Below are positions 3,072 through 35,302 of a stretch of DNA of 64,000 bases, piece after piece (the first letter of the stretch is position 1; each line of letters starts with the position of its first letter). The stretch lies in NCBI GenBank assembly GCA_035544895.1, contig DASZZM010000039.1:61007-125006 (forward strand), given 5' to 3'. Source of the DNA: Thermoanaerobaculia bacterium (GTDB lineage: Bacteria; Acidobacteriota; Thermoanaerobaculia; Multivoradales; UBA5704). Under the pieces are notes generated by a model. That model saw only the letters and a program-made list of their open reading frames with translations, had not been told where the DNA came from and did no database searches. A program made the position numbers and the translations under genes.

Positions 3072-3117
3072 CCACGATGCGTCGCGCGCGCTTCGTGGAG
3101 CTCGAGCGGGTGGGGCA

Positions 3118-4808: not shown

Positions 4809-5207
4809 CAGCCATGCCGCTTCGGCCGGGTAGCGCAAGGGTGGGCGGTCGCCGAGGGCTGGCGAGCGGCAGCGGGCCTGGACGAACTCGCAGGGCGCCT
4901 GAGCGTCGCGGCCGGGCGCGACGGCCTTTACGTGGCCGCCTTCTCCGGCGAGGGCGGTCTGTGGCGGCTGCCCTGGGAGGCGCTCGAAGCCGCGGAGTGG
5001 CAGCGGGTCGGCGAGGCGAGGCTGGATGGGGAGCCACTGCCGGTCTTGAATTGATGCCGGTCGACCGCGCCGCGGCTGCTGCAGCGCGCATCCTGATGGG
5101 GTTTCGTGCGGGAGAGGAGCCGCAAGCGCCACGAAACCGCACCGTACGCACGCTGAATAGCGTGGGGGGCGGCGTAAGTCGGTCGGCGGCGGTTCGCCGA
5201 CGCGCCG

Positions 5208-17800: not shown

Positions 17801-19064
17801 GAGGCTCGCCGTCCCCAATCTCGATCTGACCGGCGCGGTCGACGTGCTGGCGACCCTGCGCGGCACTCTCGCCGAGCCCTTGCTCAACGGGCAAGCGGGC
17901 TTGCACGGCGCCCGGCTGATCGTGCCCGGCCTGCCCAATGCCATCGAGGACATCGACGGCACGGTCCTGCTCTACCGCGACCGCCTGGTCATGGACGGCC
18001 TGCGCGCGCGCCTGGGCGGCGGCACGCTGCGGGTCTCGGGCCAGCTGACCTTGCCCGCGCAGGGACGGGCGCTGGCCTATCGCGCCGAGCTGTCGGCCCA
18101 GGACGTCAGCGTGCGCTTCCCCGAGGGATGGGTGAGCCGCGGCGACGCCCAGATCTCGCTCGCCGAGAGCGGCTCCGGACGCCAGGTGCAGGGCCTGATC
18201 ACCTTGAGCCGCGCGCTCTACGTCGAAAAGGTCGAGGTCGACGCGCTGCAGCTCCTCTTGCGCGGGCTGCACCGGGAGCGCCTGCGGGTGGCCGCCACCA
18301 CCGGAGCGCTGGCGACCACGCAGCTCAACCTGGCGATCAACGGACCCGGCGCCCTGCGTGTCCGCAACAACGTGGCTGACGTGCACGGCGACATCGAGCT
18401 GACCGTGGTCGGCACCCTGGCCTCGCCGGTGCTCTTCGGCTTCATCCAGCTCGAGCCAGGCGGCTCGCTGGTCTATGCCGACACCAAGTACTCGATCGAG
18501 CGCGGCACTTTGACCTTCGCCAACCCCAACCGCATCGACCCGGTCATCGATCTCGGCCTGAAGACCCAGGTGCAGAGCTACGACATCGCCCTGAATCTGT
18601 CGGGCACCGTCGATCGGCTCAACGCCAAGTTCGCTTCCAGCGGCGACCTTGCCGATCTCGACATCCTGGCCCTGCTGGCGACCGGCCAGCGCCCCGAGAC
18701 CCGCCCGCCGCCTCCCCCCGGCTCGCCGGAGCGCGAGATCGCCGGCCAGACGGCGGCGGCCGGCTTCCTGGCGGGCCAGGCGTCTTCGGCCCTGTCGGCG
18801 CGCGTCGGCAGGCTCTTCGGCCTGGACCGCCTGCGGATCGACACGACGTCGCTCTCGGCAGCCGGCCAGCCGACCTCCGGCGTCGTGATCATCGCCGGCA
18901 AGCGCCTGTCGAAGAACGTCTTCGTCACCTATGTGAGCACGCCCAACAACCCTCACCAGGACGTACGGCAGATCGAGTGGCAAGCGGCCAGGAGCCTGAA
19001 GGTATTGCTCACCCAGAGCGCCGGGAGCTACGCCGTCGACTTCCAGCTGGAGAGGCGTTTTTGA
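14877..19064 (+). CDS. tamB: TamB/AsmA-like translocation and assembly module protein
   Basis: 1395 aa, N-terminal TM anchor, beta-taco-like repeats, C-terminal DUF490-like region (GTL.F.NP..IDP.IDL; FGLDRLRID; GKRLSKNV.VTY). Precedes an Omp85 gene. Confidence 0.8.
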   Translation: MRRWLVRPVVWTSFLIVVLVAGAIGFVHSEYALRELADLVRSRLSDAVEREVQLSSVDYDLWTPRPSLELHDLVIPGPRRGDRPVLRASLVRLQVTWTALRSKVFDLEQVEIVRPQIYLELYRDGSSNLPRPRRTAKAPRFEVRIGHLALEDGVLQLNERRSPLAVEARALWGRAVGVEETGSKELRLDARLTTQDLRVTLPNARPYPFTFSARGSVTGGKVTIARALLSAPELSLAASGAIGWGKQNQVELAVNGTAAARWVNDVGFMAEPIDGPASFAGRFELRGGDWRYWGTLESPRVAVLRRQFLDLAGDFAGDSRRLTVGLRRARYADGDITGRVVIETGAAPGPRGGRPVELDLLVRGLALQPFLADLFPRQFAGPGGPVVELSGRASGRVRYRFPSAEWRLGAGTAGLRLEGGAAALPGRPGLAVGGELPLALAQGVLTAGDVVLTAPGQQATVSAFRYDLLRDAGRLDYRLTSGDTGGLIPLFPPVRPKPGAPPPVQASPVWLPTAGHGTASGAVTITPTGYSARMDLDLRQVASPALGSADRLHGGLTIEPLAIEGLRLEASAGGGALLVTGRIPLARAGRAEPDEPIQLGIDASDWPAAGLAPYLPAGFPVAGVPGSDPAHAVELRGAVSGRLDLGGNFERLTGRGDVDASGVVVSGVQLGRVRGELAFDPGRFTVEGGLIDSPAGKAVVRGTFERASGVVDATIDAPSLSLAAEPLRGASSGTGLTGRIALMAAASGTLDRPRAMLTLRGQGLAVNGRPLAGAVRGAAPSGASNQSPAGASSQLPPGASSSQSPSGAPSPSSPQPSGEAQVTVSLSDGTLRASGALAGLLSFEGGGRLDRRRGGITLDVRSNDLGGLLRLAATPQMPDLTGSFAGSLVVDADLAAGTYGGELRLADLRAEYAGRKIANREPVVASFSSARLVIRSFYLGETGADTELFVSGSIGLGSGQPLDLRLQSTISASWARLAVPNLDLTGAVDVLATLRGTLAEPLLNGQAGLHGARLIVPGLPNAIEDIDGTVLLYRDRLVMDGLRARLGGGTLRVSGQLTLPAQGRALAYRAELSAQDVSVRFPEGWVSRGDAQISLAESGSGRQVQGLITLSRALYVEKVEVDALQLLLRGLHRERLRVAATTGALATTQLNLAINGPGALRVRNNVADVHGDIELTVVGTLASPVLFGFIQLEPGGSLVYADTKYSIERGTLTFANPNRIDPVIDLGLKTQVQSYDIALNLSGTVDRLNAKFASSGDLADLDILALLATGQRPETRPPPPPGSPEREIAGQTAAAGFLAGQASSALSARVGRLFGLDRLRIDTTSLSAAGQPTSGVVIIAGKRLSKNVFVTYVSTPNNPHQDVRQIEWQAARSLKVLLTQSAGSYAVDFQLERRF
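17218..17310 (+). repeat. Degenerate 24-27 bp tandem repeat encoding a Ser/Pro/Gly linker in tamB
   Basis: CAGGCGC-initiated units at 17218, 17242, 17266 and 17293. Confidence 0.7.
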
Positions 19065-21913
19065 GCCGGCGCGCGCGCGCCCTGTCGCTGGCTTGCGCTC
19101 TCGCCGTCGCCGCCGGCCCGGCCCCGGCCCAGACGCCGCCGCTCCCGAAGCCCCCGGAGCTCTCGGAGCTCCCGGCGCTCCCGCTGCTCCCGGCACTCCC
19201 GCTAGTCACCGCGATCGAGATCCGCACTCCGACGCCTCTCGGCAAGAAATCCGAGGTCGCTTCGGTGCTCGAGATCGAGCCGGGCAAGCCGCTGACCGAC
19301 ATGGCGGTGCGCCATACGCTGCGCAACCTGGTGGCGACCGGCGCCGCCTCTCGGGCCGAGCTCTACACCCGGACCGAACCGGAGGGAGTGGTCGTGGTCC
19401 TCGTCTTGCGCCCGGTCGTGCAGGTCGGCCGCGTCCGCCTCGCCGGCGACCTCGGCCTCGACGAGTCCGAGCTCAAGGCCGTCCTGCCGCAGAAGGAGGC
19501 GGAGCCCCTCGCCGAGGAGGCGGTGGTCCAGGGGGTCTACAACCTGCAGAACCTCTACCAGCAGAACGGCTACTTCAAGGCCAGCGTGCACCTCGACGTC
19601 CATACCGATCCGGTGCAGCACGGGGCCGACGTAACTTACCAGGTGGCCGCCGGACCGCGCGCCACGGTCGGCACGATCGCCTTCGACGGCCAGCTGGCGC
19701 CGTTCGCTCCGGCCATCTTGATCGATCGCCTGCGGACCAAGCCCGGCAAGGCCTATCGCCAGCGCGCGGCGGAGGACGATGCCGAGCGCCTGCAGGCATG
19801 GCTGATCGAGCAGCACTACGGGTCTGCCCGGGTGGACCGTCCGCGCGCGGCCTACGATGCCGCCAGCAATAGCGTGGGCCTGGTCTATCCCGTCCAGCTC
19901 GGGCCGCTGATCACGTTCACGCTCACCGGCGGCGATGAAAAGAAGCTGCGCAAGAAAGGACTGCTCCCATTCCTCGGCCCCGAAGGCTATGACGAAGCGC
20001 TGGTGCAGCAGGCGCTCGCCAAGATCAAGGCCTACTACCAGCTCCAGGGGCATTACCACGTGCGCGTCGACTCCGCCGAAAAACCCGCCGAAGGCAAACT
20101 CGATCTCGCCATCACCATCGAGCCCGGTCCGGTCTATACCCTCGAAGCCGTCGAGTTCAGGGGCAACCGCGGCGTCGGCAGCTCCCAGCTCGCCAAGCTG
20201 ATGTCCACCGCGCCGCGCAAGCTGCTGCGGCCGGGAAGCGGGCGGCTGGTGCAGGACGAGCTCGATGCCGATATCGAAAACATCCGCTCCTACTACGCCC
20301 TGCAAGGCTATGGAGAGGCCAAGGTCGGGCCGGCCCAAGTGACCGAGCAAGGCGCCGTGCTGCGCCTCGCCGTGCCGATCGACGAGGGGCCGCAGCAGCG
20401 GGTGGTCAAGATCGAGCTGCGCGGCGTCGAGAAGCTCGACGCGGCCAGGCTGCGCAAGAGCCTGCCGCTCCAGGAAGGGGGGCCCTTCCATCCGGTGTTG
20501 CTGGAGCAGACGCTGACCGCGATCCGCACCGCCTACGCCGACCAGGGGTACCTGCGCATGCAGGTCTCCGCGGCGAGCGACTGGGACCGCTCACATCGCC
20601 TCGTCGACCTGACCCTCTCGGTCCTCGAGGGGCCGCAGCGCGTGCTCGACCGTGTGATCGTGCGCGGCAACCAGGCGACCAGGGTCGAGGTCATTCGCCG
20701 CGCGCTCGCCGTCAAGCAGGGCGAGCCGCTGGGCCAGACCAAGCTCTTCGAACTGGAAAGCCGGCTCTACCGGCTGGGGATCTTCTCGCGCGCCGACGTG
20801 GACCTGACCGGGTCCGGTCTCGATTCGCCGGAGCGCGACGTGCTGGTGCGGGTCGAAGAGGCCAAGTTCAAGAGCCTCACCTACGGCGCCGGCTACGACA
20901 CCCAAGAGGGGCTGCGCGGCACCGTCGGCTTCTCCCACAGCAATGTAGCGGGCCAGGCGGACAGCCTGCGCGCCGACATGCGGCTGTCGCAACGCGACAA
21001 ACGGTTCCGTCTGCTGTTCAACCAGCCGTACCTGGGCAGCCGCCGGATTCCCCTGACCTCGACGCTGTTCTACTTCGACACCCGCGAGGTGAGCTTCCGC
21101 ACCAAGCGTTGGGGCGGCCGGGTGGAAGCGGTCAAGGCGTCGCCGCACAAGCGCCTGTCGCTCGCCTTCGACTACCGCGTCGTCGAGCTGACGGTCGACC
21201 CCGGCGTGGCCCTCAATGCCATCGAGCGCCAGAACCGGCCCAACCAGCTGTCCAGCGTCATCCCGACGCTGTTGCTCGATCATCGCGACGACCCGCTGGA
21301 GCCGACGCGCGGGTGGAGCGCGCTGGCGCAGATCCAGTATTCCTTCCCCTTGGCCTCGAAGGCGGACTTCCTGAAGCTTTTCTTGCAGCAGACCCGGTAC
21401 TTCCACCTGGGCCGCCCCGGAGTGGTGGCCGCCAGCCTGCGGGCCGGTGGGATCGAGGCCTTCAGCAGCCTTGGGCGAGGCGACCCGGACGTGCCTCCTT
21501 CGCTGCCCAGCAGCAACGTCTTCATCGACGAACGCTTCTTCGGCGGCGGCAGCACCACGCACCGCGCCTACAGCCTCGACCGCCTCGGCATCCGCGGCCA
21601 GACCCTGATCCAGCCCGCCGGCCGCAGCGCCTTCTTGCCGGTCGGCGGCAATGGTTTGCTGCTCGCCAACGTCGACTACCGATTCCCGATCGCCGGACCG
21701 GTGGGTGGCATTCTGTTTTTCGATTCCGGCAACATCTGGCCCGACTGGCGCGACATCCGCCTGCGCGAGGTGAAGTCCGGCGTCGGCCTGGGTGTGCGCT
21801 ACCTCTCGCCGATCGGTCCCCTGCGCGCCGAGATTGGCTGGAAGCTCAACCGCGAGCGCCACCCCGACGAGCCCCCGTTCGTGGTGTTCCTGAGCTTCGG
21901 GAATCCGTTCTAG
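19061..21913 (+). CDS. Omp85/BamA-TamA family outer-membrane protein with multiple POTRA domains
   Basis: Probable TTG start overlapping the tamB stop; signal peptide; repeated POTRA motifs (F.GN, Y..QGY); RFFGGGSTTHRAY, GLGVRYLSPIGPLR, terminal FGNPF. Confidence 0.88.
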   Translation: MSRRARALSLACALAVAAGPAPAQTPPLPKPPELSELPALPLLPALPLVTAIEIRTPTPLGKKSEVASVLEIEPGKPLTDMAVRHTLRNLVATGAASRAELYTRTEPEGVVVVLVLRPVVQVGRVRLAGDLGLDESELKAVLPQKEAEPLAEEAVVQGVYNLQNLYQQNGYFKASVHLDVHTDPVQHGADVTYQVAAGPRATVGTIAFDGQLAPFAPAILIDRLRTKPGKAYRQRAAEDDAERLQAWLIEQHYGSARVDRPRAAYDAASNSVGLVYPVQLGPLITFTLTGGDEKKLRKKGLLPFLGPEGYDEALVQQALAKIKAYYQLQGHYHVRVDSAEKPAEGKLDLAITIEPGPVYTLEAVEFRGNRGVGSSQLAKLMSTAPRKLLRPGSGRLVQDELDADIENIRSYYALQGYGEAKVGPAQVTEQGAVLRLAVPIDEGPQQRVVKIELRGVEKLDAARLRKSLPLQEGGPFHPVLLEQTLTAIRTAYADQGYLRMQVSAASDWDRSHRLVDLTLSVLEGPQRVLDRVIVRGNQATRVEVIRRALAVKQGEPLGQTKLFELESRLYRLGIFSRADVDLTGSGLDSPERDVLVRVEEAKFKSLTYGAGYDTQEGLRGTVGFSHSNVAGQADSLRADMRLSQRDKRFRLLFNQPYLGSRRIPLTSTLFYFDTREVSFRTKRWGGRVEAVKASPHKRLSLAFDYRVVELTVDPGVALNAIERQNRPNQLSSVIPTLLLDHRDDPLEPTRGWSALAQIQYSFPLASKADFLKLFLQQTRYFHLGRPGVVAASLRAGGIEAFSSLGRGDPDVPPSLPSSNVFIDERFFGGGSTTHRAYSLDRLGIRGQTLIQPAGRSAFLPVGGNGLLLANVDYRFPIAGPVGGILFFDSGNIWPDWRDIRLREVKSGVGLGVRYLSPIGPLRAEIGWKLNRERHPDEPPFVVFLSFGNPF

Positions 21914-23182: not shown

Positions 23183-24418
23183 TTGAACATCCTCCTCGTC
23201 ACCACGCGCTATCCCTGGCCGCCGCGGCGCGGCGATCAGCTGCGCACGGTGCAGATGCTCGACTTGCTGTCTGGCGAGCACGCGGTCACTCTGCTGACGC
23301 CGGCTCCTCGCAAGAGCGCCGCCGCCATGACGAGCTTCCGGGACGGTTCGGCCCCCGTCCTCCCTCCGCGCAATGTTCAGGAGATTCAGGAGGCGGTGCG
23401 GATCGAAACCTATGAGAGCGGAGGAGTGGGCGCCGCGGCGGAAGGGTTCGCCCGCGCCGCGGTTGGCGGCTGGCCCCTGCAGAGCGGGCTTTTCCACCTG
23501 CCGGGCCTGGGCAGGCGGCTGCGCGCGCTCGCGCCGCGGGCCGATCTCGCCGTCATGCAGCTGGCGCGGCTGGCCATCCACCTCGACGATTTCGGCAACA
23601 CTCCGCTGCTGATCGACCTGATCGACAGCCTGTCGCTCAACCTCGCGCGGCGCGCCGCCTGCGACCGGAGGTGGCTTCGTCCCCTGCTCCGGCTCGAAGC
23701 GGGCCGGCTTGCCCGCGCCGAGACGAGGCTTGCCGCGCGCGCCCGCGCCGTCGTGGTGGTCAGCGAACGGGACCGGCTGGCGCTCGCCGGCCGCATGCCA
23801 GCCGCCCTGGCCGGCCGCCTCGGGCTGGTCGGACTGGCGGTCGAGCCCGGCGCGCACGCCGAGCAAAGGGAGCCGCGCCGTGGCGGTCCCGTCCTGGCCA
23901 TCACCGGCAATCTCGGTTACTTCGTCAACGCGGACGCGGTGCTCTGGTGGCTGGGTGCGGTCTGGCCTTTACTGCGCGCGCGGCGGCCCGACGTGCGGCT
24001 GGAGGTCGCCGGCGACCGGCCGCGGCCGGCGGTGCGGCGAGCCGTGACCCGGGCGGGCGCTCTGCTGATCGAGTCGCCGGCCGACCTGCGGCAGGTGCTC
24101 GCCGGAGCGACCATCGCGCTTGCGCCGCTGCGCTGCGGATCGGGAGTGCCTCTCAAGGTGCTCGAAGCCTGGGCCGCGGGAATCCCGGTCGTCGCCACGC
24201 CCTGGGCCGCCGCCGGGACCTCCGGCCGCCCGGGAGAGGACCTGCGCGTTGCCGAACGCCCGCAGGAGTGGGTGGAGACCCTGCTCGATCTGCTCGACGA
24301 CCCTGCCGCGAGGCGCCGCCTCGCGGAAAACGGCCGCCGCCGCCTCGAAGCCGACTACTCCCGCGCCGCAGTCGGGCGACAGCTCGCTCACGCAATTGAG
24401 CTGGCCTGCTCGGGTTAG
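23183..24418 (+). CDS. Glycosyltransferase family 4 (GT-B)
   Basis: YPWPPRRGDQLR; GNLGYFVN.DA; GSGVPLKVLEAWAAGIPVVAT. TTG start. Confidence 0.85.
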   Translation: MNILLVTTRYPWPPRRGDQLRTVQMLDLLSGEHAVTLLTPAPRKSAAAMTSFRDGSAPVLPPRNVQEIQEAVRIETYESGGVGAAAEGFARAAVGGWPLQSGLFHLPGLGRRLRALAPRADLAVMQLARLAIHLDDFGNTPLLIDLIDSLSLNLARRAACDRRWLRPLLRLEAGRLARAETRLAARARAVVVVSERDRLALAGRMPAALAGRLGLVGLAVEPGAHAEQREPRRGGPVLAITGNLGYFVNADAVLWWLGAVWPLLRARRPDVRLEVAGDRPRPAVRRAVTRAGALLIESPADLRQVLAGATIALAPLRCGSGVPLKVLEAWAAGIPVVATPWAAAGTSGRPGEDLRVAERPQEWVETLLDLLDDPAARRRLAENGRRRLEADYSRAAVGRQLAHAIELACSG

Positions 24419-24512
24419 TTGCCGCCACCGGCGTTCCACACGAACCATTTCGTTTTAGTCCCGGTGAGTGAGAAGACCGTATCAGGGGCGGTCATGAGCA
24501 GGTCGGGAGCGA

Positions 24513-24530
24513 TTCATGATATATCATGAA
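24513..24530. promoter_or_regulatory. Perfect 18-bp palindrome (candidate operator) in AT-rich promoter region
   Basis: TTCATGATATATCATGAA is its own reverse complement; TATAAT at 24560-24565 lies downstream. Confidence 0.65.
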
Positions 24531-24559
24531 ATAGAAAAGTGAGAATTATTTGGAATATA

Positions 24560-24657
24560 TATAATCGAAAGAGCCTTTCCTTGGTAAGAGCGGCGGTGAC
24601 GCCACCGCCGCGCACTGCCAGGCCAATAGCCGGCCTGGCGCAAACCGTGGAAAGGAG
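24560..24657 (+). promoter_or_regulatory. Putative -10 box, two leader hairpins and SD for the small secreted protein gene
   Basis: TATAAT at 24560; stem GCGGCGGTG/CACCGCCGC (24590-24611); stem GCCAGGCC/GGCCTGGC (24617-24639); AAAGGAG at 24651. Confidence 0.55.
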
Positions 24658-24663
24658 TTTTTT

Positions 24664-25029
24664 ATGAGCAGGCAAGGACTTCACCGCGTTTTACCAGGGC
24701 TGGCCATCGCGGCCGCCCTGAACCTGACGGCTCCCGGCCGGGCCGAGGCGGCCTGGGCTTTCCGAGCCAATTCCGCGGCAGGCTGGAGCGACGTCTGGAG
24801 CGCCGCCTGGAGCAAGGGGGCGAGCTGGTGGGACGATCTGTGGGCCCGGGTTGGGCCCGGGCCGTCCCGCGGCGGCTCACGGCCGAGCACGGAAGCTCGA
24901 TTCAGCGGCGTCTCGAGGAAAGAGGGCCAGCACGATGGCGACTCTTCGTGGCACCGCGACGATCGGGGTCCCGGTTCAGAAGGAGCCTGCAGCGTCAACC
25001 CGAACGGCGTCTGCAGCCCTGAGCACTGA
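24664..25029 (+). CDS. Small secreted protein/propeptide (121 aa) ending in C-SVNPNGV-C
   Basis: Strong SD; signal peptide ending AEA-A; Trp-rich segment, Gly/Ser/Arg linker, C-terminal GACSVNPNGVCSPEH. Confidence 0.7.
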   Translation: MSRQGLHRVLPGLAIAAALNLTAPGRAEAAWAFRANSAAGWSDVWSAAWSKGASWWDDLWARVGPGPSRGGSRPSTEARFSGVSRKEGQHDGDSSWHRDDRGPGSEGACSVNPNGVCSPEH

Positions 25030-25100
25030 GCCGAAGCGGGGAGAAGCTTGCGTTGAAGGGAGGCTTGTTCTAATCTCCTGAAATTTACTGAAGGAGGGGT

Positions 25101-26516
25101 TTGAGCGAACATCCCACCGCCGAGGAGCTCGCGCGCTTCATCGCCGAGGAGCTTCCTCCGCCGCGGACTCGGGCCGTGGTCGAGCACCTGGTCCGCGGCT
25201 GCCGGCGCTGCCGCACGGCGCTTGCCGGGCGGACGGGACTCGCTTCCTTCGCGGCTCCGGCGGCGGCTGCCGAGCGGCCGGCGGCCGGTGGACGGGATCG
25301 CCGGCGCGGCAAGCGGAGCGGAACGGGCGCCGGCTCCGGCTCCTGCAATGCCGAGTACGACCGCGCGATCGCCAGCGCTTTCGCCACCGCTCGCCGGCAC
25401 AGCCGCCGCCTGCGCCTCGACAAGGCGAGAGCGCAGCAGGTCCGCGACCTCTTGCAGGCCCGGGGCATCGCCGGCTTCCTCGGCCTGCCCAGGCACCTGC
25501 GCGGCGTACCCGCCTGTCAAGGGTGTCTCGATCTCGCCTGGTCCCTGCGCCAGGAGGATCCGCGGCAGATGGTGCAGCTGGCGCAGCTGGCGACCCTGGC
25601 CGCGCGCCGGCTGCCGCCGGCTGGCCACGGCGATGCCCAGAGCCTCGACTTGCGCTGCCGAGCCGAGATGGAGCTGGCCAACGCCTATCGGGTGGTCAGC
25701 CGGTTTCGCGAAGCGGGTGCCGCCTTGAGTGTCGCGGCCGACCTCTTTCGCCGCGGCAGCCGAGATCCTTTCCTTGCCGCGCGGCTCCTCGAGATCAAGG
25801 CCAACATCTGCGGCGACCGCTGCAACTTCCTGGAAGCCTTCAGAGCTCTCAACGGCGCGGCGCGGATCTATCGCCGCTACGGCCAACCTCACCTCGCCGG
25901 CCGCATGCTGATCGAGAAAGGCATGTATAGCGGCCACGCGGGCGAGCCGGAGAAGGCGATCGCCTTGCTGCGCCAAGGCCTCGAGATGATCGATCCGGCG
26001 ATCGATCCGCAACTAGCCCTGGCGGCGGTTCACAACGTGGCGGTGTGTATGGTGGATCGCGGCGACTTCCGGCCGGCACGGCTGCTGCTCTGGCGTCATC
26101 TGCAGCTCTTCGAGGAGCATGCCGGCCTGACGCATCGGCTGAGGCTGGCGTGGCTGAAAGGCCGGATTCACGAGGGACTTGGAGAGTACGTCCGCGCCGA
26201 GCGCGCCTTCGTCCAGACACGCGAGGACATGTCCGCCGCCGGCGACCCGTACGCGGCGGCGACCGCCACTCTCGATCTCGCCGCACTGACGATGCGGCGG
26301 GGAGACGCCGAGCGCGCGCACGCCCTCGCCCGCGAAGCGGCGCAGGTCTACTTCACCCTGGACCTCGGGCGCGAGACCACGGCCGCCGTGATGCTCCTCG
26401 AGGCGACTCTCGAGTTTCAGAAGAGTACGACGGCAGGGCTGTTCAAACAGGTTGCCGATTTCATGCGCCAGGCCGCGAGCGATAAGTCGCTGAGTTTCAG
26501 GAATTATTTCTCGTAA
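25101..26516 (+). CDS. TPR-like protein with N-terminal zf-HC2-like motif
   Basis: AAGGAGG SD and TTG start; HPTAEELARF...VVEHLVRGCRRCR; AEMELANAYRV...A.AAL; multiple TPR-like helix pairs. Confidence 0.75.
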   Translation: MSEHPTAEELARFIAEELPPPRTRAVVEHLVRGCRRCRTALAGRTGLASFAAPAAAAERPAAGGRDRRRGKRSGTGAGSGSCNAEYDRAIASAFATARRHSRRLRLDKARAQQVRDLLQARGIAGFLGLPRHLRGVPACQGCLDLAWSLRQEDPRQMVQLAQLATLAARRLPPAGHGDAQSLDLRCRAEMELANAYRVVSRFREAGAALSVAADLFRRGSRDPFLAARLLEIKANICGDRCNFLEAFRALNGAARIYRRYGQPHLAGRMLIEKGMYSGHAGEPEKAIALLRQGLEMIDPAIDPQLALAAVHNVAVCMVDRGDFRPARLLLWRHLQLFEEHAGLTHRLRLAWLKGRIHEGLGEYVRAERAFVQTREDMSAAGDPYAAATATLDLAALTMRRGDAERAHALAREAAQVYFTLDLGRETTAAVMLLEATLEFQKSTTAGLFKQVADFMRQAASDKSLSFRNYFS

Positions 26517-26528
26517 GGGGACGCCCCC
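26515..26528 (-). repeat. REP-like motif copy (GGGGGCGTCCCCTT, reverse orientation)
   Basis: AAGGGGACGCCCCC at the TPR stop codon; exact reverse complement of copies at 35373 and 55935. Confidence 0.6.
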
Positions 26529-26587
26529 GCCCCTGGCGTACTGATTGACGAGTTTCTTTCTAACTTCTGCTCCCTGCGGCGAACTAT

Positions 26588-27013
26588 TCAGTCGTCGTCG
26601 AGGGGCGGGTCGGGGTCGAGGCCGGCGATGCGGCGCAGCGCGTCCTGCACCATTTCGTCGATGTCGGGCGGGCCCCAGGGCTCGGTCGTAGCGGCGTCCC
26701 GGGCTGCGGGAGATGGGTGGCGGCCGTGCAGGACCTCGAGGAGGCTCAGCATGCGCTCCTCTTCGGTATCGAGCCCGCGCTCGTGCGGAAACATCACCGC
26801 CAGGAAGCGGGCGGGGGAGAGCTCGAGGGCGCCGAGGATGCTCAGCAGCTGACTGACCTTGAGGTCGCTCGTGCCGCGCATCAGGCGCGTCATGGTGCCC
26901 GCGCTCCAGCCCAGCTGGCGCTCGAAGTCCCGGTAGCTGCGCTGCGACAACCGGATCGCGTCCCTGAGCATGGCAAGCAGGAGCTCGGCAGCGTCGCCGG
27001 ACTTAGCCGCCAT
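26588..27013 (-). CDS. XRE/Cro-family helix-turn-helix regulator
   Basis: LRDAIRLSQRSYRDFERQLGWSAGTMTRLMRGTSDLKVSQLLSILGALELSP pattern; convergent on the TPR gene. Confidence 0.8.
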   Translation of the reverse strand: MAAKSGDAAELLLAMLRDAIRLSQRSYRDFERQLGWSAGTMTRLMRGTSDLKVSQLLSILGALELSPARFLAVMFPHERGLDTEEERMLSLLEVLHGRHPSPAARDAATTEPWGPPDIDEMVQDALRRIAGLDPDPPLDDD

Positions 27014-27284
27014 CTCTCAAAAGGCGCTCTTTCTCATGTCTTTAGCTTATACGGCTGATAAAAACTTGTCCAATTACTGGTGGAAGATCTCGGCGAGAGC
27101 GGCAGCGACCTGCCGAGCGGCAACTAATGGCGGGAGCGGCGGGCCGAGCCCGCACGGCACGAGCCGCGGTCCTCCCGTCCCCCGGTTGGCGGCACGAGAG
27201 CGGCTGGGGCGGGCGTCGACCGGCTCGGGCCGGCTCAGGACGACGGCGGAGATGAGTGAGAGTCGTTCTTGATCGGAGAGACGA

Positions 27285-27617
27285 TCACCAGCGCTCGCGT
27301 CCGCCCTCGCGGTTGCCGCCGCGCCCCCCACCGCCGCCCCAGCCACTGCCGGCGCCGCCGCCGCGCCCTCCCTCGGTGCGCGGCCGCGCCTCGTTGACGT
27401 TGAGCTTGCGCCCCATCACCTCTTTGCCGTTGAGGCCGGTGATGGCGGCTTCGGCCTCGGAGCGCTCCGGCATCTCCAGAAAGCCGAAGCCCTTCGACGA
27501 TCCGGTGACCTTGTCCTTGATGATGGTGCAGGACGAAACCTGCCCGTACTCCTCGAAGGTCTCCTTGAGCTGGTCCTCGGTAATGCGGTAGGGCAGGTTG
27601 CCCACGTACAAATTCAT
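27285..27617 (-). CDS. RRM (RNP-1) RNA-binding protein with Gly-rich tail
   Basis: RNP2 LYVGNL and RNP1 KGFGFLEM; NVNEARPR followed by GGRGG tail. Confidence 0.95.
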   Translation of the reverse strand: MNLYVGNLPYRITEDQLKETFEEYGQVSSCTIIKDKVTGSSKGFGFLEMPERSEAEAAITGLNGKEVMGRKLNVNEARPRTEGGRGGGAGSGWGGGGGRGGNREGGRERW

Positions 27618-27855: not shown

Positions 27856-29310
27856 ATGGTTGGTGAGAGGTCTACGGGGGGCGCGCTGCCGCGCATGCTG
27901 GTGATCTTGGTGGTCCTGCTGCTCGTGGTGGCGCTGACCGGCACGTTGTGGGTGGGACGGGCTCCCCGGCTCGAGATCAAGCCTTCGCGGCCCGGCATCG
28001 GCAGGCGGACTCCGATCCTGGTCAAGCTGAACGACGCCGGCCGGGTCGACAAGCTCACGGTCGAGGTGGTGCAAGGCATGGACGTCAAGCCGGTTGCCGA
28101 AAAGAGCTTCGCACCCCACTCCGCCTGGGCGTTCTGGAAAGCGGCGGCGCCGGCCGAGCTGGCCGTCGAGGTCGGCCGCGACACCGTGCCGGGCCTGCGC
28201 ACCGGCGAGGCGATCGTGCGGGCGACCGCCCAGCGCGCGGGATCGCTGCTGCGCAGCCCCGCCCCGGTGGTCGTCGAGGTAAAGCTGCCGGTCCGCCTGT
28301 CTCCCCCCGCCCTCGCCGTGACCTCCGGCTTCCATTACGTAGCCCAAGGCGGTTGCGAGGCGGTGGTCTACAGCGTCGGCGAGGGCGCCGTGCGCGACGG
28401 GGTGCAGTCGGGCGAGTGGTGGTTCCCCGGCTTCCCGTTGGGAGGCGACAAGAGGCAGCGCTTCGCGCTGTTTGCCATCCCCTACGAGACCGGAGACGCC
28501 TCCAAGGTCCGCCTGGTGGCCGAGGACGAGATCGGCAACCGCGCCGAAGTCTCGTTCGTCGACCTGTTTTTCCCCAAGCCCCTGAAGACCGATACCATCC
28601 AGCTCAACGACGCTTTCCTCAACCGGGTGGTGCCGGAGATCATGGGGCAGACGCCCGGACTGCAAGACCGGGGCTCGCCGCTGCAGAACTACTTGGAGAT
28701 CAACGGCGAGCTCAGGCGCAAGAGCTCCGGAGAGCTCGCGCGGCTGGCGGACAAATCGGCTCCTCGGTTCCTCTGGAAGGAGCCCTTCTTGCCCATGCGC
28801 AACGCCAAGATCACCGCCGCCTTCGCGCAACGCCGCACCTACCTCTACGCCGGTAAGAAGGTCGACCAGCAAGACCACCTCGGGTTCGACATGGCCTCGG
28901 TGGAGCACGACTCCGTGCCGGCCTCGAACAGCGGGGTGGTGCTGCTGGCCAGATACTTTGGCATCTTCGGCAACGCGGTCGTCGTCGATCACGGCTATGG
29001 GCTGATGAGCCTCTACGGCCATCTATCCGCGATCAGCGTGCGCGAGGGCCAGGAAGTCAAGCGCGGGCAGGAGCTGGGCCGCTCCGGTCAGACCGGCCTG
29101 GCCGGCGGCGACCACCTGCACTTCACCACCATGCTGCGCGGCCTGCCAGTCAATCCCGTGGAGTGGTGGGACCCGCACTGGATCCGGGACCGCCTGGCAA
29201 GAAAGCTCGGCCCCGCCCTCTCCTATGCCGCCGGCACGGCCGCCGCCACTCCCGCCCCCCAGCGGCCGCCCGCCGCGGCCTCCAGAAAGAAGGGCCGGCC
29301 CGGGCGCTAG
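27856..29310 (+). CDS. M23 family metallopeptidase
   Basis: N-terminal TM/signal; QDHLGFD, YGHLS, TGLAGGDHLHF, VNPVEWW. Confidence 0.9.
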   Translation: MVGERSTGGALPRMLVILVVLLLVVALTGTLWVGRAPRLEIKPSRPGIGRRTPILVKLNDAGRVDKLTVEVVQGMDVKPVAEKSFAPHSAWAFWKAAAPAELAVEVGRDTVPGLRTGEAIVRATAQRAGSLLRSPAPVVVEVKLPVRLSPPALAVTSGFHYVAQGGCEAVVYSVGEGAVRDGVQSGEWWFPGFPLGGDKRQRFALFAIPYETGDASKVRLVAEDEIGNRAEVSFVDLFFPKPLKTDTIQLNDAFLNRVVPEIMGQTPGLQDRGSPLQNYLEINGELRRKSSGELARLADKSAPRFLWKEPFLPMRNAKITAAFAQRRTYLYAGKKVDQQDHLGFDMASVEHDSVPASNSGVVLLARYFGIFGNAVVVDHGYGLMSLYGHLSAISVREGQEVKRGQELGRSGQTGLAGGDHLHFTTMLRGLPVNPVEWWDPHWIRDRLARKLGPALSYAAGTAAATPAPQRPPAAASRKKGRPGR

Positions 29311-31502: not shown

Positions 31503-31630
31503 GTCCCAGATTGTGCTCCAGTCGCACCTAAAAGGTGAGACGGTTTTCGTCCTGGTCACGGACCGGGCAGTTCCGCCGCATGCGGCAAGCGGCCGCTCGG
31601 CGCCGGAACGCTCGACTCAAGGAGATTGAC

Positions 31631-31882
31631 ATGAGCTGGGAAGACAGGGAAGACAACACCATCTACAAGGTCGTGGTCAACCACGAGGAGCAATACTCGA
31701 TCTGGCCCGCCCACCGCGAGAACCCCCTGGGTTGGAACGACGTCGGCAAGAGCGGCACGAAGCAGGAGTGCCTGGACTACATCAAGGAAGTGTGGACCGA
31801 CATGCGGCCCCTCTCCTTGCGCAAGAAGATGGAGGAGATGGAGCGCGAGCGCCAGAAGCAAGCCGGCCAGGAGACGAACTAG
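31631..31882 (+). CDS. mbtH: MbtH-like protein
   Basis: GGAGA SD; [13 protein letters not shown]....P.GW......[22 protein letters not shown]. Confidence 0.97.
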
Positions 31883-31888
31883 CCAGAT

Positions 31889-32671
31889 TTGAAACCGAAC
31901 CCTCCCCCCTCGGAGCGGTGGCTCGCCTACCGCGAAGTCAATCCCCGTGCGCGGCTGCGTCTGTTGTGCTTTCCCTACGCGGGCGGCGGCGCCTCCGCCT
32001 ACCGCGGCTGGGGAGCGGCGCTGCCCGCGGACGTCGAGGTCTGCCCGGTGCAGCTGCCGGGCCGGGAGAGCCGCCTGCGCGAGCCGCCTTTCACGCGCGC
32101 CGAGCCATTGATCAGGACCCTGGCCGACGTGCTCGAGCCGCACCTTGACGTTCCCTTCGCCTTCTTCGGGCACAGCATGGGCGCGATGATCGGCTTCGAG
32201 CTGGCGCGCGAGCTGCGCCGCCGTGGCCGCCCGCTGCCGCAACACCTCTTCGCCGCCGGCCGCCGGGCGCCGCAACTTCCGGCCCGCGAGGAGGACATCC
32301 ACGACCTGCCGGAGCCGGAATTCCTGGCCAAGCTGCGCGAGCTCAACGGCACACCCGAAGAGGTGCTGCAGCACGGCGAGCTGATGCGCCTGCTGCTGCC
32401 CATCCTGCGCGCCGATTTTGCGATCAACGAGACCTACGCGCACACGCCGGAGGTTCCCTTCGACTTCGGCATCTCCGCCTTCGGCGGCCTGGGCGACAAG
32501 GAGGTCACGCGCGAGGACCTGGCGCTCTGGCACGACCACACCCGCGGGCGCTTCCGGCTGCGCATGCTGCCCGGAGACCACTTCTTCCTGCACAGCGCCA
32601 AGGACCTGCTCGTCGAGGCGGTGGCGCGCGACCTGGCCGAGCTCACGCAGGCCGCTCAACCCTTGCGGTGA
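31889..32671 (+). CDS. Type II thioesterase
   Basis: LLCFPYAGGGAS, VQLPGRE, FFGHSMG, ILRADF, LPGDHFF. Confidence 0.93.
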   Translation: MKPNPPPSERWLAYREVNPRARLRLLCFPYAGGGASAYRGWGAALPADVEVCPVQLPGRESRLREPPFTRAEPLIRTLADVLEPHLDVPFAFFGHSMGAMIGFELARELRRRGRPLPQHLFAAGRRAPQLPAREEDIHDLPEPEFLAKLRELNGTPEEVLQHGELMRLLLPILRADFAINETYAHTPEVPFDFGISAFGGLGDKEVTREDLALWHDHTRGRFRLRMLPGDHFFLHSAKDLLVEAVARDLAELTQAAQPLR

Positions 32672-33420
32672 CCACGACTTTCCCGCCGCGGACGGCCGCC
32701 TCCGAACTGGAGCTGCCCGCCGGGGAGATCCATCTCTGGGCTGTCCGGCTCGATCCTCCCCACGAGCAGGCCGAGCGGCTCGGCCGGGCCCTGTCGCCCG
32801 ACGAGCGGCAGCGCGCCGAGCGCTTTCGCTTCGATCGCCATCGGCGCCGTTACGTGGTGGGGCGCGGCGCGCTGCGGGCGCTGCTCGCCGGCTATCTCGG
32901 CACCCGGCCCGAGCTCGTGGCCTTCGGCTACGGGCCGCGCGGCAAGCCTCTCCTCGCCGCGCCGCCGGCCGGCACGCCAGATGGCCTGTTCTTCAACCTC
33001 TCCAACTCCGACGAGCTCGCCCTGGTGGGGTTCGTGCGCGGCGCCGAGATCGGCGTCGACGTCGAGCTCCTCAAGCCCATGCCGGACCTCGAGCAGATCG
33101 CCGAGCGCTTCTTTTCGGAGAGCGAGCGCCTGGTTCTGCGCCGGCTGCCCGAGCACCAGAAACGGGAGGCGTTTTTCAACTGCTGGACGCGCAAAGAGGC
33201 CTACCTGAAGGCCGTCGGCGAGGGGCTGGCGGCTCCGCTCGACTCGTTCGACGTCACCCTTGCGCCCGGAGAGCCGCCGCGGATGCTCACCCTGCGCGGC
33301 GATGCCGAGCGGGCCGCCCGCTGGTTCTACCGCGATTTCCGGCCGGCGGAGGAGTTCATCGGCGCCCTCGCCATCGAAGGCGGCCCCTGGCAGGTCCGCA
33401 CCTGGACCTTCACGGGATAG
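32668..33420 (+). CDS. Sfp/HetI-type 4'-phosphopantetheinyl transferase
   Basis: LSPDE..RA.RF, GKP, FNLSNS, IGVDVE, FFNCWTRKEAYLKA.G.GL. Confidence 0.93.
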   Translation: MTTTFPPRTAASELELPAGEIHLWAVRLDPPHEQAERLGRALSPDERQRAERFRFDRHRRRYVVGRGALRALLAGYLGTRPELVAFGYGPRGKPLLAAPPAGTPDGLFFNLSNSDELALVGFVRGAEIGVDVELLKPMPDLEQIAERFFSESERLVLRRLPEHQKREAFFNCWTRKEAYLKAVGEGLAAPLDSFDVTLAPGEPPRMLTLRGDAERAARWFYRDFRPAEEFIGALAIEGGPWQVRTWTFTG

Positions 33421-35302
33421 CGGGGGCGTCTCCCTCCCGCCGGACGCCGCCCTCGTCGGTCCGGCGGCCGGCGTGGTACCCGGGCGCGGAGGGTCGCAGC
33501 CATGCCGCCCTGTGCGCCCGCTGGGTGGGCGTCGCCGCCGGGTCGGGCTCCAGCCGGAAGCGCAGGCGGGGGCGCTGGCCGAAGACCACGGGCAGGCGCT
33601 CCAGGCGCTCGCGGCGGGCCACCAGCAGGGTCCGCTCTTCACCCGACCGGTAGGCGGCCAGGCGCTCCCGCAGCCCGTCCGGCGGCACCCGGTAGTCGCC
33701 GATGGCCAGGATCTCGTCGCCGACGTTGACGCCGGCAGCATAGGCTGGCGTGCCGCGCTTGACCTGGGTGACGACCAGGCGGCCGGCTTGAGTTTCGGCT
33801 TCGAGACCCAGCCAGGCGGCGTTCGCCTCCCGCCGCTTGCCGCGCTCCTCGCTTTCGCCGAAGCGCAGCCCGAACCAGTCGAGGGCTTCCTCGTAGGCGA
33901 GGTCGCCGGTGCCGCGCACGGCCCGATCGAACCAGCCGCCGAGGTCGGTCTCGGCCACCTCGGAAGCGGTCTCCTCGAACTCACCGGCGCGGAAGCCGCG
34001 CGCGCCGGAGTAGCGCTCGAAGGCGCGGCGCAGGACGGTGTCGAGGCTCCTCCGCCCCATGGTCGCCCGGCGGATGGCGGCGTCGAGCAGGAAAGACACC
34101 ACCGCGCCCTTGGTGTAGTAGCTGATGCCGGCGTTGGCGAAGTTCTCGTCGCGGCGGTAGTACTGGATCCAGGTGTCGAACGACGCGGCCTCGAGCGATT
34201 GCACCAGCCGGCCCGGCGAGGTCTCCAGCAGCTCGATCTGGCGGCTGAGCTGGCGCAGCAGCTCGCCCGGAGTGGAAAGTCCGGCGCGATGCACCAACAG
34301 GTCGTCGTAGTAGGAGGTCACCCCCTCGACCTGCCAGAGGCTCCGCGTGTAGACCTCCTGCTCGAAATCGAGGTCGGCGAGCTCCGCGGGACGCAAGCGC
34401 TTGGCGTTCCAAGCGTGGAAGAGCTCGTGGCTCAGCAGGCCGAGCCAATCCAGCCGGCCTTCACGGCTGCGCGAGCGCCAGCGGCTGGTCATCAGCACGC
34501 TGGAATCGCGATGCTCCAGCCCCCCCGAGCCCTCGGTGATCAAGTTGAAGAAGACGTAGCGCGAGTAAGGTACGCTGCCCCAGAAGGCGGTCTGCTCGCG
34601 CACCACGCGCTCGGCGTCGGCGGCCGAGCGCGGCCCGTCCCAGACCGCCGGATCCTCCCCCTCGTTGACCAGCAGGTGGGGCCGCCCCGCCACCTCGAAG
34701 CGGTGGACGGCGGCGTTGCCGGCATAGATCGGCGAATCCACCAGGTGCTCGAAGCTCTCGGCCTGGTAGAGCATCTCGCCTTCCCGTGGCGCGCCGGGAG
34801 CCTCGGGCAGGGCGGAGACCGCCACCCGCCACCGCGGCGGGGCGACGAGGCAGACCAGGTGCGGGCGGGCGATCCCGCCGCCGTCACCCCCGCCGTCCGG
34901 GCCGTCCTTGCCTTCGGGACCTTCGAGACCTTCTGGAGCCAGGGCGAGGAAGGTGGCGGCGCCGTTGAGCAGGGCGAAGCCCGCGTCGACGAAGTCGGTG
35001 CGCACCGACATCTCGCGGGCGTAGAGGCGATAGCGGACGACGATCCGAGGAAGTCCGCGCGCCGCCACCTGCCAGCGGTTCTTGCTGATTTTCTGGCAGG
35101 CCAGAGGCTCGCCCGCTTCGGTTGCGGCCGCCAGGACTTCGACATGGCGCGCGAACTCGCGCACCAGGTACGAGCCGGGCGTCCACACCGGCATCATGAG
35201 GTCGACCCTGGAGCGGCCGCCGGTGGGGAAGCGGGCCTCGACCTCGATGCGATGAGTTTCGGGGTGCGGCAGCCTCACCGTGTAAAGAATCGGCTCGGAC
35301 AT
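33410..35302 (-). CDS. M61 family glycyl aminopeptidase with C-terminal PDZ domain
   Basis: PVWTPGSYLVREFA, GGLEH, HELFHAWN, W..EGVTSYY, SYYTKG, PDZ (TPA..AGVNVGDEILAI). Confidence 0.93.
   Translation of the reverse strand: MSEPILYTVRLPHPETHRIEVEARFPTGGRSRVDLMMPVWTPGSYLVREFARHVEVLAAATEAGEPLACQKISKNRWQVAARGLPRIVVRYRLYAREMSVRTDFVDAGFALLNGAATFLALAPEGLEGPEGKDGPDGGGDGGGIARPHLVCLVAPPRWRVAVSALPEAPGAPREGEMLYQAESFEHLVDSPIYAGNAAVHRFEVAGRPHLLVNEGEDPAVWDGPRSAADAERVVREQTAFWGSVPYSRYVFFNLITEGSGGLEHRDSSVLMTSRWRSRSREGRLDWLGLLSHELFHAWNAKRLRPAELADLDFEQEVYTRSLWQVEGVTSYYDDLLVHRAGLSTPGELLRQLSRQIELLETSPGRLVQSLEAASFDTWIQYYRRDENFANAGISYYTKGAVVSFLLDAAIRRATMGRRSLDTVLRRAFERYSGARGFRAGEFEETASEVAETDLGGWFDRAVRGTGDLAYEEALDWFGLRFGESEERGKRREANAAWLGLEAETQAGRLVVTQVKRGTPAYAAGVNVGDEILAIGDYRVPPDGLRERLAAYRSGEERTLLVARRERLERLPVVFGQRPRLRFRLEPDPAATPTQRAHRAAWLRPSAPGYHAGRRTDEGGVRREGDAPAIP

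Follow-up and report, generated by a model that had tools for sequence, protein, structure and literature searches.

Organization of the locus

We examined a stretch of 64,000 nucleotides from a Thermoanaerobaculia bacterium (Acidobacteriota; assembly GCA_035544895.1, contig DASZZM010000039.1, positions 61,007 to 125,006 of the forward strand), hereafter called the window, in which a first-pass annotation had marked a candidate peptide-signalling cassette. Base composition of the window was 70% GC. Three open reading frames (ORFs) of the cassette, encoding a small exported protein, a soluble tetratricopeptide repeat (TPR) protein and a convergent XRE-type protein with a helix-turn-helix (HTH), were found at the coordinates that the annotation had given. 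Positions below are those of the window.

24664..25029, + strand: gene for the small exported protein (putative propeptide), 121 aa, ATG start
24650..24657, + strand: Shine-Dalgarno sequence GAAAGGAG of the small gene, 6 nt before the ATG, read from the DNA
25101..26516, + strand: gene for the soluble TPR protein (putative cytoplasmic receptor), 471 aa, TTG start after GAAGGAGGGG
26588..27013, - strand: convergent XRE/Cro-type HTH gene, 141 aa, HTH at about aa 12-68 (26810-26980)

The small gene and the TPR gene lie on the same strand, separated in the window by 71 nt. No terminator-like site was seen between them there, and co-transcription of the two is therefore plausible. The small ORF had been described as strongly translated; its Shine-Dalgarno sequence is present, and the strength of translation was an extrapolation from that sequence alone.

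Conservation of the gene pair

A word search with the TPR protein returned 59 homologues, and those with names came from Thermoanaerobaculia metagenome-assembled genomes (MAGs). Every contig examined for homologues at 39-43% identity carried a same-strand ORF of about 94-105 aa immediately upstream. A GTDB scan with one genome per species gave 20 loci, all in Thermoanaerobaculia, Acidobacteriota or Holophagales MAGs. Among these and the earlier loci, the small ORF preceded the TPR gene at approximately 25 of the 27 that had adequate upstream sequence; it was absent at locus L025 and at L027, the most divergent locus. A small-protein profile built from 18 sequences recovered 72 small proteins, and in the reverse test all three of the strong small-protein matches (3/3) adjoined a TPR gene. 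P0130, a weak profile match (E=7e-4) that was not beside a TPR gene, was excluded from the family. Named small proteins were all labelled 'hypothetical protein', and for the two proteins together the databases offered only that name or 'TPR repeat protein'.

For an independent metagenome sample, contigs were picked solely by a degenerate DNA pattern for the TPR motif EL[AG]NAYRVAD, and loci were kept if the start of an anti-sigma-like TPR gene could be recognized and 450 nt or more of sequence preceded it (n=41). A signal-peptide ORF lay upstream of the TPR gene in 38 of the 41; [IVLM][DN]P[DN]G, the strict motif, was present in 33 of these ORFs, and a loose form of it (e.g. SDPDG, TDPNG, ISPEG) in five. 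The linkage foreseen in the first-pass annotation, between TPR genes and signal-peptide ORFs ending in [DN]P[ND]G, was thus borne out as a conserved one. The strict motif occurred once in 19 ORFs and twice in 14, and in 25 of the 33 only 0-3 residues followed its last copy. Motif density was 1.19 per 100 aa in the upstream ORFs vs 0.0024 in other six-frame ORFs, an enrichment of approximately 500-fold. The gap between small gene and TPR gene ranged from 17 to 285 nt across the 38 loci.

The receptor family is large. A hidden Markov model (HMM) of the receptor, run against 1.84 billion cluster representatives, matched 3,762 clusters (50% identity) at E<=1e-30, and every organism name available for the family was Thermoanaerobaculia, Acidobacteriota or Holophagales. 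The top 150 clusters were mostly full-length, at about 440-460 aa, and most of 60 inspected N-termini read M-x-x-H-P-[TS]...H-L-x-x-G-C-x-x-C. Two members from distant clades, L032 and L153, again had a small ORF followed by a TPR gene and a convergent HTH gene. Judged by these loci, the small exported gene and the soluble TPR gene are a tightly conserved, co-diversifying pair. On the same reckoning the pair is the invariant core of the system and the XRE-like gene a frequent accessory.

The small exported protein

Three segments were distinguished in the window copy of the small protein.

24664-24750, + strand: signal peptide, aa 1-29, Sec form by inspection
24754-24849, + strand: Trp-rich amphipathic segment, aa 31-62, followed by a low-complexity linker
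24979..25014, + strand: C-terminal motif E-G-A-C-S-V-N-P-N-G-V-C, aa 106-117, the window version of the family motif

Its N-terminus is MSRQGLHRVLPGLAIAAALNLTAPGRAEA/AW (the slash marks the cleavage point), with R3, R8, the h-region LPGLAIAAALNL and the cleavage form AEA/A. Sec signal peptides were called by inspection and a crude rule, and the Sec-type features (basic residues, an h-region, P-x-x-A-x-A/A) were kept across the family. Behind the Trp segment the window protein has a Gly/Ser/Arg-rich linker and ends ...EGA-C-SVNPNGV-C-SPEH. No match to the small protein was found in Pfam or NCBIfam. Family members were 77-133 aa long (median 104), many of them 100 aa or shorter; the window copy has 121 aa.

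The family motif spans about 10 residues, [DK]-[EQN]-G-[SAPG]-[GMA]-[IVL]-[ND]-P-[DN]-G in 113 non-redundant instances, or in shorthand [DK][EQ]G-x-x-[IVL][ND]P[DN]G, with 1-3 copies per protein in a usually C-terminal position. Its final Gly is invariant, and Gly at -3 was present in 102 of the 113. The window peptide is EGACSVNPNGVC; others are GSMINPDGQPPV and EKEGSAINPNG. A second motif class, KFGAG[HQ]SSDG[HR], was found in a monophyletic TPR clade, and the motif GAGIDNNGH of L014 bridges the INPDG-type and SSDG-type classes. Tandem copies were seen as pairs in L007 and P0107 and as triplets in L024 and L153; the three copies in L153 read EGD[QN]S[AM]SIDP[DN]G, and G is the last residue of that protein. 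Some small proteins stop exactly at ...PDG or ...PNG, and that of L032 ends ...EEGCVINPNGAK.

The first-pass annotation had drawn the signal as a cyclic peptide closed by two cysteines. C109 and C117 are indeed the only cysteines of the window protein and enclose SVNPNGV. As a general feature the disulfide-closed ring did not hold, since Cys residues flanked the motif in just 5 of the 113 instances, from the window clade, L005 and L007. The predicted C109-C117 disulfide loop is a lineage-specific trait and not one that defines the family.

Whether the small ORF is a gene at all was weighed separately. Its codon-position signal was weak (GC at third codon positions 0.77, neighbouring genes 0.83-0.94; at second positions 0.67), and dN/dS among three close relatives was 0.58-0.68, whereas the TPR gene had 0.28 and the upstream glycosyltransferase 0.17-0.24. 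Composition alone leaves the coding status of the ORF ambiguous. A chance frame in 70% GC DNA, which would make the cassette an artefact, is the reading that these values and the lack of a Pfam or NCBIfam match would favour. The DNA of distant TPR loci could not be aligned, so the likeness of their small ORFs is conservation at the protein level. Because the signal peptide, Trp-rich helix and C-terminal motif are kept beside TPR homologues of only 30-45% identity, we take the small ORF to be a real gene; together with the roughly 500-fold motif enrichment over six-frame background and the strong Shine-Dalgarno sequence, this refutes the chance-frame explanation. A single-sequence protein search with the small protein had found only two relatives (88% and 80% identity), and the idea that it was lineage-specific was rejected once small ORFs turned up beside distant TPR homologues.

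Two further assignments were tried and rejected. A double-glycine leader, with the Trp helix followed by GG as in LSxxELxxIxGG, was inconsistent in register among members; moreover, the helix stands behind a Sec signal, and the loci had no linked C39-peptidase ABC exporter. A C-terminal sorting signal (PEP-CTERM, LPXTG and similar) was set aside on finding no transmembrane segment after the motif.

The Trp helix, WxW[IL]xS[LF]W[DE]xL, was kept in most members (a simple Trp pattern matched 81 of 118), with examples such as WAWIASLWDQL and WSWLSAFWGD in TPR-linked ORFs. The segment between helix and motif was of low complexity and variable length. An amphipathic helix so widely kept would suit another role for the protein. 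It could be the output of the cassette, an envelope, membrane-active or bacteriocin-like product that the TPR protein regulates with or without the XRE-like protein, and the two proteins of the pair would never touch. The TPR protein is then assumed to respond to some other ligand. For a pheromone precursor a mature part of 50-90 aa is long, the members of the pair belong to different compartments, and adjacent co-transcribed genes co-diversify without binding, all of which suits such a product. It gives no account, however, of a short unit present one to three times at the extreme C-terminus, the sole near-invariant feature of the C-terminal half, or of the joint duplication of the gene pair with diverged motif classes in one genome, and a low-complexity linker of variable length is unlike a folded effector. 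We count the duplicated pair with its diverged motif classes and the repeated terminal unit toward peptide signalling, and consider a regulated end product unlikely, while still a serious alternative.

The TPR protein

The window TPR protein has 471 aa; representatives of the family mostly have 440-460 aa, and a longer linker brings the protein to 500-550 aa in some clades. No transmembrane segment was detected in the window protein (maximum Kyte-Doolittle 19-residue mean 1.42). Its Pfam matches, to TPR_12 and SNAP, were weak; TPR_12 matched 31 of 31 receptor family members.

25101..25235, + strand: N-terminal three-helix anti-sigma-like domain, aa 1-45, with invariant H4, H29, C34 and C37
25506..26480, + strand: TPR superhelix, approximately aa 136-460, about 7-8 helix pairs in an AlphaFold2 model

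The AlphaFold2 model, built on a 31-sequence alignment, had a mean predicted local distance difference test score of 85.5 and a predicted template-modelling score of 0.74. It placed helices at 7-14, 20-31 and 35-45, a disordered linker at 47-80, a long helix at 80-121 and a regular stack of helix pairs up to residue 459. The linker (aa 47-80) differed greatly in length between clades. Foldseek against PDB ranked LGN/Pins complexes first (E of about 6e-7), ahead of kinesin light chain and, in third place, Rap proteins; matches to Rap with bound peptide (4gyo, 4i9c, 8rte) had E 3.5e-5 to 2.6e-4 and 12-13% identity. On this model the receptor body is a TPR superhelix of the peptide-binding kind, and homology to Rap is not implied. 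Polar residues conserved across the family (N194, R197, R228, H264, R268, N312) lie on A-helices of the repeats according to the DSSP string, a placement that would fit a conserved ligand groove. At TPR residue 260 (Y260 in the window; 25878-25880) the receptor has H or Y where its peptide is N-type (xNPxG) and R where it is D-type (xDPxG). This residue may be a specificity contact, in a signal confounded by phylogeny.

The N-terminal motif H-x24-H-x4-C-x2-C was striking in its constancy, H4, H29, C34 and C37 being invariant in sets of 31 and of 23 sequences. A profile of the first 50 receptor residues matched the PDB entries for DdvA (E=0.0016), RslA (0.044) and ChrR (0.7), all over the same N-terminal region and with a one-residue gap. 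The recurring top match, zf-HC2, was weak: 11.9 bits for the window N-terminus vs a cut-off of 22.2, and E<=1 in 5 of 31 members, the best at 5e-4. We call the receptor N-terminus ZAS-like, since in these alignments it resembles the zinc-binding anti-sigma (ZAS) domain; membership of that family is not established. The 'zinc-finger end' of the first-pass annotation survives in that form, as a resemblance with four invariant residues and a zf-HC2 score below cut-off.

This resemblance invites a reading in which the linkage to the small ORF is incidental and the receptor is an orphan zinc-binding anti-sigma factor with an unrelated TPR input, or in which a precursor like that of a ribosomally synthesized and post-translationally modified peptide (RiPP) is paired with a dedicated binder. 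The N-terminal profile does match solved anti-sigma domains, and ECF-type (extracytoplasmic function) sigma genes occur elsewhere in the window (3037-4308) and near L029. About 150 loci held no adjacent sigma gene, no modifying enzyme (radical SAM, cyclodehydratase, PCAT) was conserved beside the pair, a Sec signal peptide is atypical of RiPP precursors, and the 38 of 41 loci with the small ORF speak against incidental linkage. We regard both forms of this reading as quite improbable.

The TPR module apparently also combines with other N-terminal domains, as judged from motif searches. The motif EL[AG]NAYRVAD was found with other N-termini and no anti-sigma-like motif at L062, L081, L099 and L103 and at L033, L077 and L091; such alternative N-termini read, for example, SWYANCIDTGAEDWCVN... 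or ...LALERDR...

The XRE-like gene and candidate sigma partners

The 141-aa protein of the window matched HTH_31 at E=1.5e-4 (22.4 bits), below the Pfam cut-off of 27. Among its orthologues, 11 of 12 matched HTH_31 and 10 of 12 HTH_3 (best E=7.4e-6). With 40-48% identity, they follow the TPR gene in convergent orientation at most loci of the wider clade of the window. A search with the conserved C-terminal half of the XRE-like protein found no known relative. By HMM the XRE-like gene was present at 23 of the 32 first loci, which represent the wider clade, vs 10 of 22 broader metagenome loci with enough downstream sequence. The first-pass annotation had made this gene a part of the cassette, which describes the wider clade of the window better than it does the broader family.

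Additional XRE-type genes were seen at a few loci. A second one, divergent from the precursor gene, lies at 3871-4239 (-) in L007 and 1864-2322 (-) in L153; both match Pfam HTH_31/HTH_19/HTH_3 and are additional to the convergent XRE-like gene. In L112 a divergent XRE-like gene by HMM (4816-5805, -) is the sole XRE-like match.

A relay from the zinc-finger end to an ECF sigma factor or the XRE protein had also been proposed. For the sigma factor this found no support in gene linkage, with no adjacent ECF sigma gene at any examined locus but L029. The L029 gene (6999-7649, -; Sigma70_r4_2, 216 aa) is the third gene after the TPR gene and the second after the XRE-like gene, and its cassette is the only one with a sigma gene nearby.

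In the window itself an ECF-type sigma gene (3037-4308, +; Sigma70_r2 and Sigma70_r4_2 within aa 50-193) lies 21 kb upstream of the cassette. Its product carries a C-terminal extension of about 230 aa, and the two genes upstream of it (20-1291, +, and 1291-2577, +) encode a 423-aa TPR_12 protein and a 428-aa family-less protein. This sigma factor could be a partner of the anti-sigma-like domain; at other loci it is not linked to the cassette.

Evolution of the cassettes

Flanking genes changed from clade to clade: a glycosyltransferase and an RRM protein in the window; Ku/LigD, BON and ABC-2 genes in the INPDG clade; ZnuA and ABC-3 genes in the SSDG clade; and LepA and DUF885 genes at L007. 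The pair of small gene and TPR gene was kept through all of these changes. Six MAGs hold two or three diverged cassettes, typically one INPDG-type and one SSDG-type; in MFD05521 the two (L017 and L010) lie 0.86 Mb apart on one contig. The TPR tree was congruent with the peptide motif classes. These paralogous cassettes look as they would if cognate pairs had been duplicated and had diverged jointly.

At three loci a second, diverged TPR paralogue (35-45% identity) stands in tandem (L009 4644-6002, L013 2129-3487, L014 4999-6240). It follows directly on the first and precedes the XRE-like gene, and it has no precursor gene of its own.

Upstream regulatory DNA

Two elements stand out upstream of the small gene in the window.

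24513..24530, strand not assigned: perfect 18-bp palindrome TTCATGATATATCATGAA, arms 9+9, 100% complementary, in the AT-rich region upstream of the small gene
24590..24611, + strand: GC-rich hairpin GCGGCGGTG-ACGC-CACCGCCGC, in what is presumably the 5' leader of the small gene

The palindrome TTCATGATATATCATGAA occurs nowhere else in the window (0 expected in shuffled sequence) and was kept at the same place in the close relatives L001 and L002 only. It may be an operator, to which the XRE-like protein, for example, might bind. No Rfam match was found in 24300-27400, the hairpin included.

Other clades had other upstream elements. In the INPDG clade a dyad, CGGCACCT-N~20-AGGTGTGCCG, precedes the precursor gene; in the form CGGCAC(C)T-N~20-AGGTGTGCCG it surrounds an AT-rich core about 70-110 nt before the precursor start codon and was seen at L004, L005, L015, L017, L018, L019 and L026. 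At SSDG-type loci (L008-L012, L016) there is a TATACT box instead, behind which some 150 nt of leader (tctctcccgttgctggttctgg...) are conserved. The INPDG dyad and the SSDG leader are candidate clade-specific operators or leader RNAs.

Proposed mechanism

The best-supported explanation of these sequences is the peptide-signalling one put forward in the first-pass annotation. In its revised form it states that the locus is a peptide-signalling cassette built on the plan of the RRNPP systems from different parts, and that such cassettes are widespread in Thermoanaerobaculia; we give this a probability of roughly 45%. RRNPP systems have a five-criterion genomic signature and have been described as features of Bacillota and their mobile elements (PMC10075063). 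The signature includes a propeptide of 10-100 aa, a receptor of 250-500 aa and a gene gap of -60 to 400 bp (PMC10075063). The window pair shows four of the five criteria of that signature, namely the Sec signal, the receptor size, the TPRs and the adjacency (PMC10075063). The analogy to RRNPP signalling stands as to the conserved, co-diversifying pair and these four criteria; the cyclic peptide did not prove general, and the ECF sigma was not linked.

The proposal starts from the gene pair, the signal-peptide-like N-terminus, the repeated terminal motif, the TPR fold and a receptor free of transmembrane segments; the remaining steps we infer. The precursor would be exported via Sec, and extracytoplasmic proteases would free one or more short peptides holding the x-[IVL][ND]P[DN]G turn, which in the lineage of the window may be closed by the C109-C117 disulfide. 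The peptide would accumulate and re-enter the cell through an oligopeptide permease. There it would bind the concave face of the TPR superhelix, where the polar A-helix residues N194, R197, R228, R268 and N312 are predicted to lie, and binding would alter the hold of the N-terminal anti-sigma-like domain on its partner. The likeliest partner in the window clade is the adjacent XRE-like HTH protein, and the TPR protein might then be an anti-repressor or anti-activator, as Rap of pLS20 is on Rco; an unlinked ECF sigma factor is the alternative partner. If the 18-bp palindrome were the operator, an autoregulatory loop would be completed.

One candidate for the processing step was noted. Directly before the precursor gene, loci of the INPDG clade encode a zinc metalloprotease that has a HEVAH motif and is either secreted or anchored in the membrane (L005 874-1959, L006 883-1950, L017 1289-2374, L019 1522-2526, L026 1511-2557, L031 2995-3912), and Pfam Peptidase_MA_2 matches the one in L031. 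It is a candidate processing protease in that clade, and is absent from the window and several other loci.

Several observations weigh against peptide signalling. With the receptor in the cytoplasm and the small protein exported, the scheme needs processing, perhaps passage of the outer membrane, and re-import. Few segments of the mature part are as well conserved as the Trp-rich helix, for which a simple propeptide model has no use. At a median of 104 aa the precursors also exceed the usual length of RRNPP propeptides, and the window copy, at 121 aa, falls outside the 10-100 aa range. The likeness to Rap is one of fold only, at 12-13% identity and of a generic TPR kind. A mutual-information scan of motif position 2 (N/D) against the TPR columns was confounded by phylogeny, and co-diversification is also expected from plain co-inheritance of any adjacent pair. 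As for the output, the XRE-like gene is absent from 12 of 22 broader-family loci, where unrelated genes follow instead, and no ECF sigma (RpoE-like) gene adjoins the cassette in the window or in about 150 loci, the nearby gene at L029 being the exception. Finally, all organisms with the cassette are represented by MAGs or metagenome contigs.

The compartment problem would be solved without import if the TPR protein bound the motif or motifs of the precursor before export, so that export freed the anti-sigma-like domain. ExsE/ExsC and FlgM/sigma-28 follow this logic of a partner switch coupled to secretion. Such a switch would report the status of Sec or the envelope rather than cell density. 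TPR proteins often bind extended C-terminal peptides, as the matches to LGN and kinesin light chain recall; several motif copies could titrate several receptor molecules, and an anti-sigma-like module suits partner-switching logic. Sec export, on the other hand, is normally quick and the C-terminal site emerges last, so that the window for binding would be brief; tandem units with acidic or Gly-rich spacers look more like processing cassettes, and no secretion-chaperone signature was found. On balance we think a secretion-coupled switch improbable, and prefer signalling by a processed peptide.

Genomic surroundings of the cassette

Other genes of possible relevance lie nearby. Two genes downstream of the cassette is an M23 peptidase (27856-29310, +), as also in L001, and 6 kb beyond it an M61 glycyl aminopeptidase with a PDZ domain (33410-35302, -). 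Both could act on Gly-rich peptides, and neither is kept beside other cassettes. Genes for an MbtH-like protein, a thioesterase and a phosphopantetheinyl-transferase, the last two named via the annotation of L001, are also near the cassette (31535-33420, +; in L001, 7874-9349); the MbtH-like set comprises accessory genes of non-ribosomal peptide or polyketide synthesis. Further away are a TamB-like protein of 1395 aa followed by a 978-aa ORF that is BamA/TamA-like by eye only (14877-21913, +), and a 774-aa SpoIIE/PP2C-type phosphatase (57628-59952, -). The TamB-like, candidate BamA/TamA-like and SpoIIE/PP2C genes are an ordinary diderm envelope and signalling context.

Significance

It is possible, at somewhat less than even odds, that Thermoanaerobaculia hold a large and so far undescribed family of peptide pheromones, with exported precursors and TPR receptors that carry an anti-sigma-like domain. 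Communication among Gram-negative bacteria is described as based on small molecules. If the family is real, it would comprise thousands of diverged receptor-peptide pairs with several orthogonal channels per genome. It would be the first RRNPP-type peptide communication, that is, with a cytoplasmic receptor, outside Bacillota in the literature searched, and of independent origin; the logic of peptide signalling through TPR receptors would then have arisen at least twice. It would further offer a starting point for the study of cell-cell or envelope signalling in a soil lineage that is abundant and for the most part uncultured, and a TPR sensor fused to an anti-sigma-like domain would be a new coupling of peptide sensing to transcription. 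The family offers many natural pairs for work with synthetic peptides (3,762 receptor clusters, at least three motif classes, tandem-copy precursors). Should the peptide model fail, a very widespread conserved pair still needs explaining.

Comparison with known systems

No RRNPP-type or TPR/zf-HC2 peptide system was found described for Acidobacteria in the literature searched. The nearest counterparts are the RRNPP(A) systems (Rap/Phr, NprR/NprX, PlcR/PapR, PrgX, AimR/AimP) of Bacillota and of the phages and plasmids of that phylum. Like them, the cassette has a small Sec-type precursor adjoining a soluble TPR gene, a short conserved unit at the precursor C-terminus that is sometimes tandem, multiple diverged pairs per genome and a TPR fold that matches Rap-peptide complexes at the level of fold. 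Tandemly duplicated propeptides are known in RRNPPA systems (PMC11343458). Unlike them, it has a receptor without detectable sequence homology to Rap, NprR, PlcR, PrgX, Rgg or AimR (best HMM match RapF, E=0.035) and an effector end that is anti-sigma-like instead of an HTH or the Rap three-helix bundle. Its host is a diderm acidobacterium, its precursor gene lies upstream of the receptor gene, its precursors are 77-133 aa long with a conserved Trp-rich helix, and it is known from its genes alone.

Rap-Phr-Rco of the Bacillus subtilis plasmid pLS20 combines an exported peptide, a TPR anti-repressor lacking DNA binding of its own, and a separate HTH repressor on which the anti-repressor acts (PMC7641744). 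That system resembles the cassette in its three parts, the window TPR protein being without an HTH and an XRE-type HTH gene standing next to it. The proteins of the two are unrelated, however, and the XRE-like gene occurs in about half of the wider family.

The first 45 or so residues of the receptor recall ZAS factors (ChrR, RslA, RsrA, DdvA) in their helix pattern and in four invariant residues of zinc-ligand type. The two differ in the spacing of the motif, H-x3-C-x2-C (with a His or Cys zinc ligand further upstream) in ZAS vs H-x4-C-x2-C with one extra residue in the cassette. The cassette also lacks an adjacent cognate ECF sigma gene, its zf-HC2 match is sub-threshold, and in place of a cupin or a transmembrane/periplasmic domain its sensor is a TPR array in the cytoplasm. 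The NsdA-family TPR-like regulators of Streptomyces (NCBIfam NF053720) gave a weak profile match in the TPR region (E=9.2e-7), but at 28.7 bits the window protein falls far below the cut-off of 75 and is hence not a member.

Taken at the level of sequence, the cassette carries the genomic signature of RRNPP systems, yet lies outside the RRNPP protein family in homology, effector domain and phylum.

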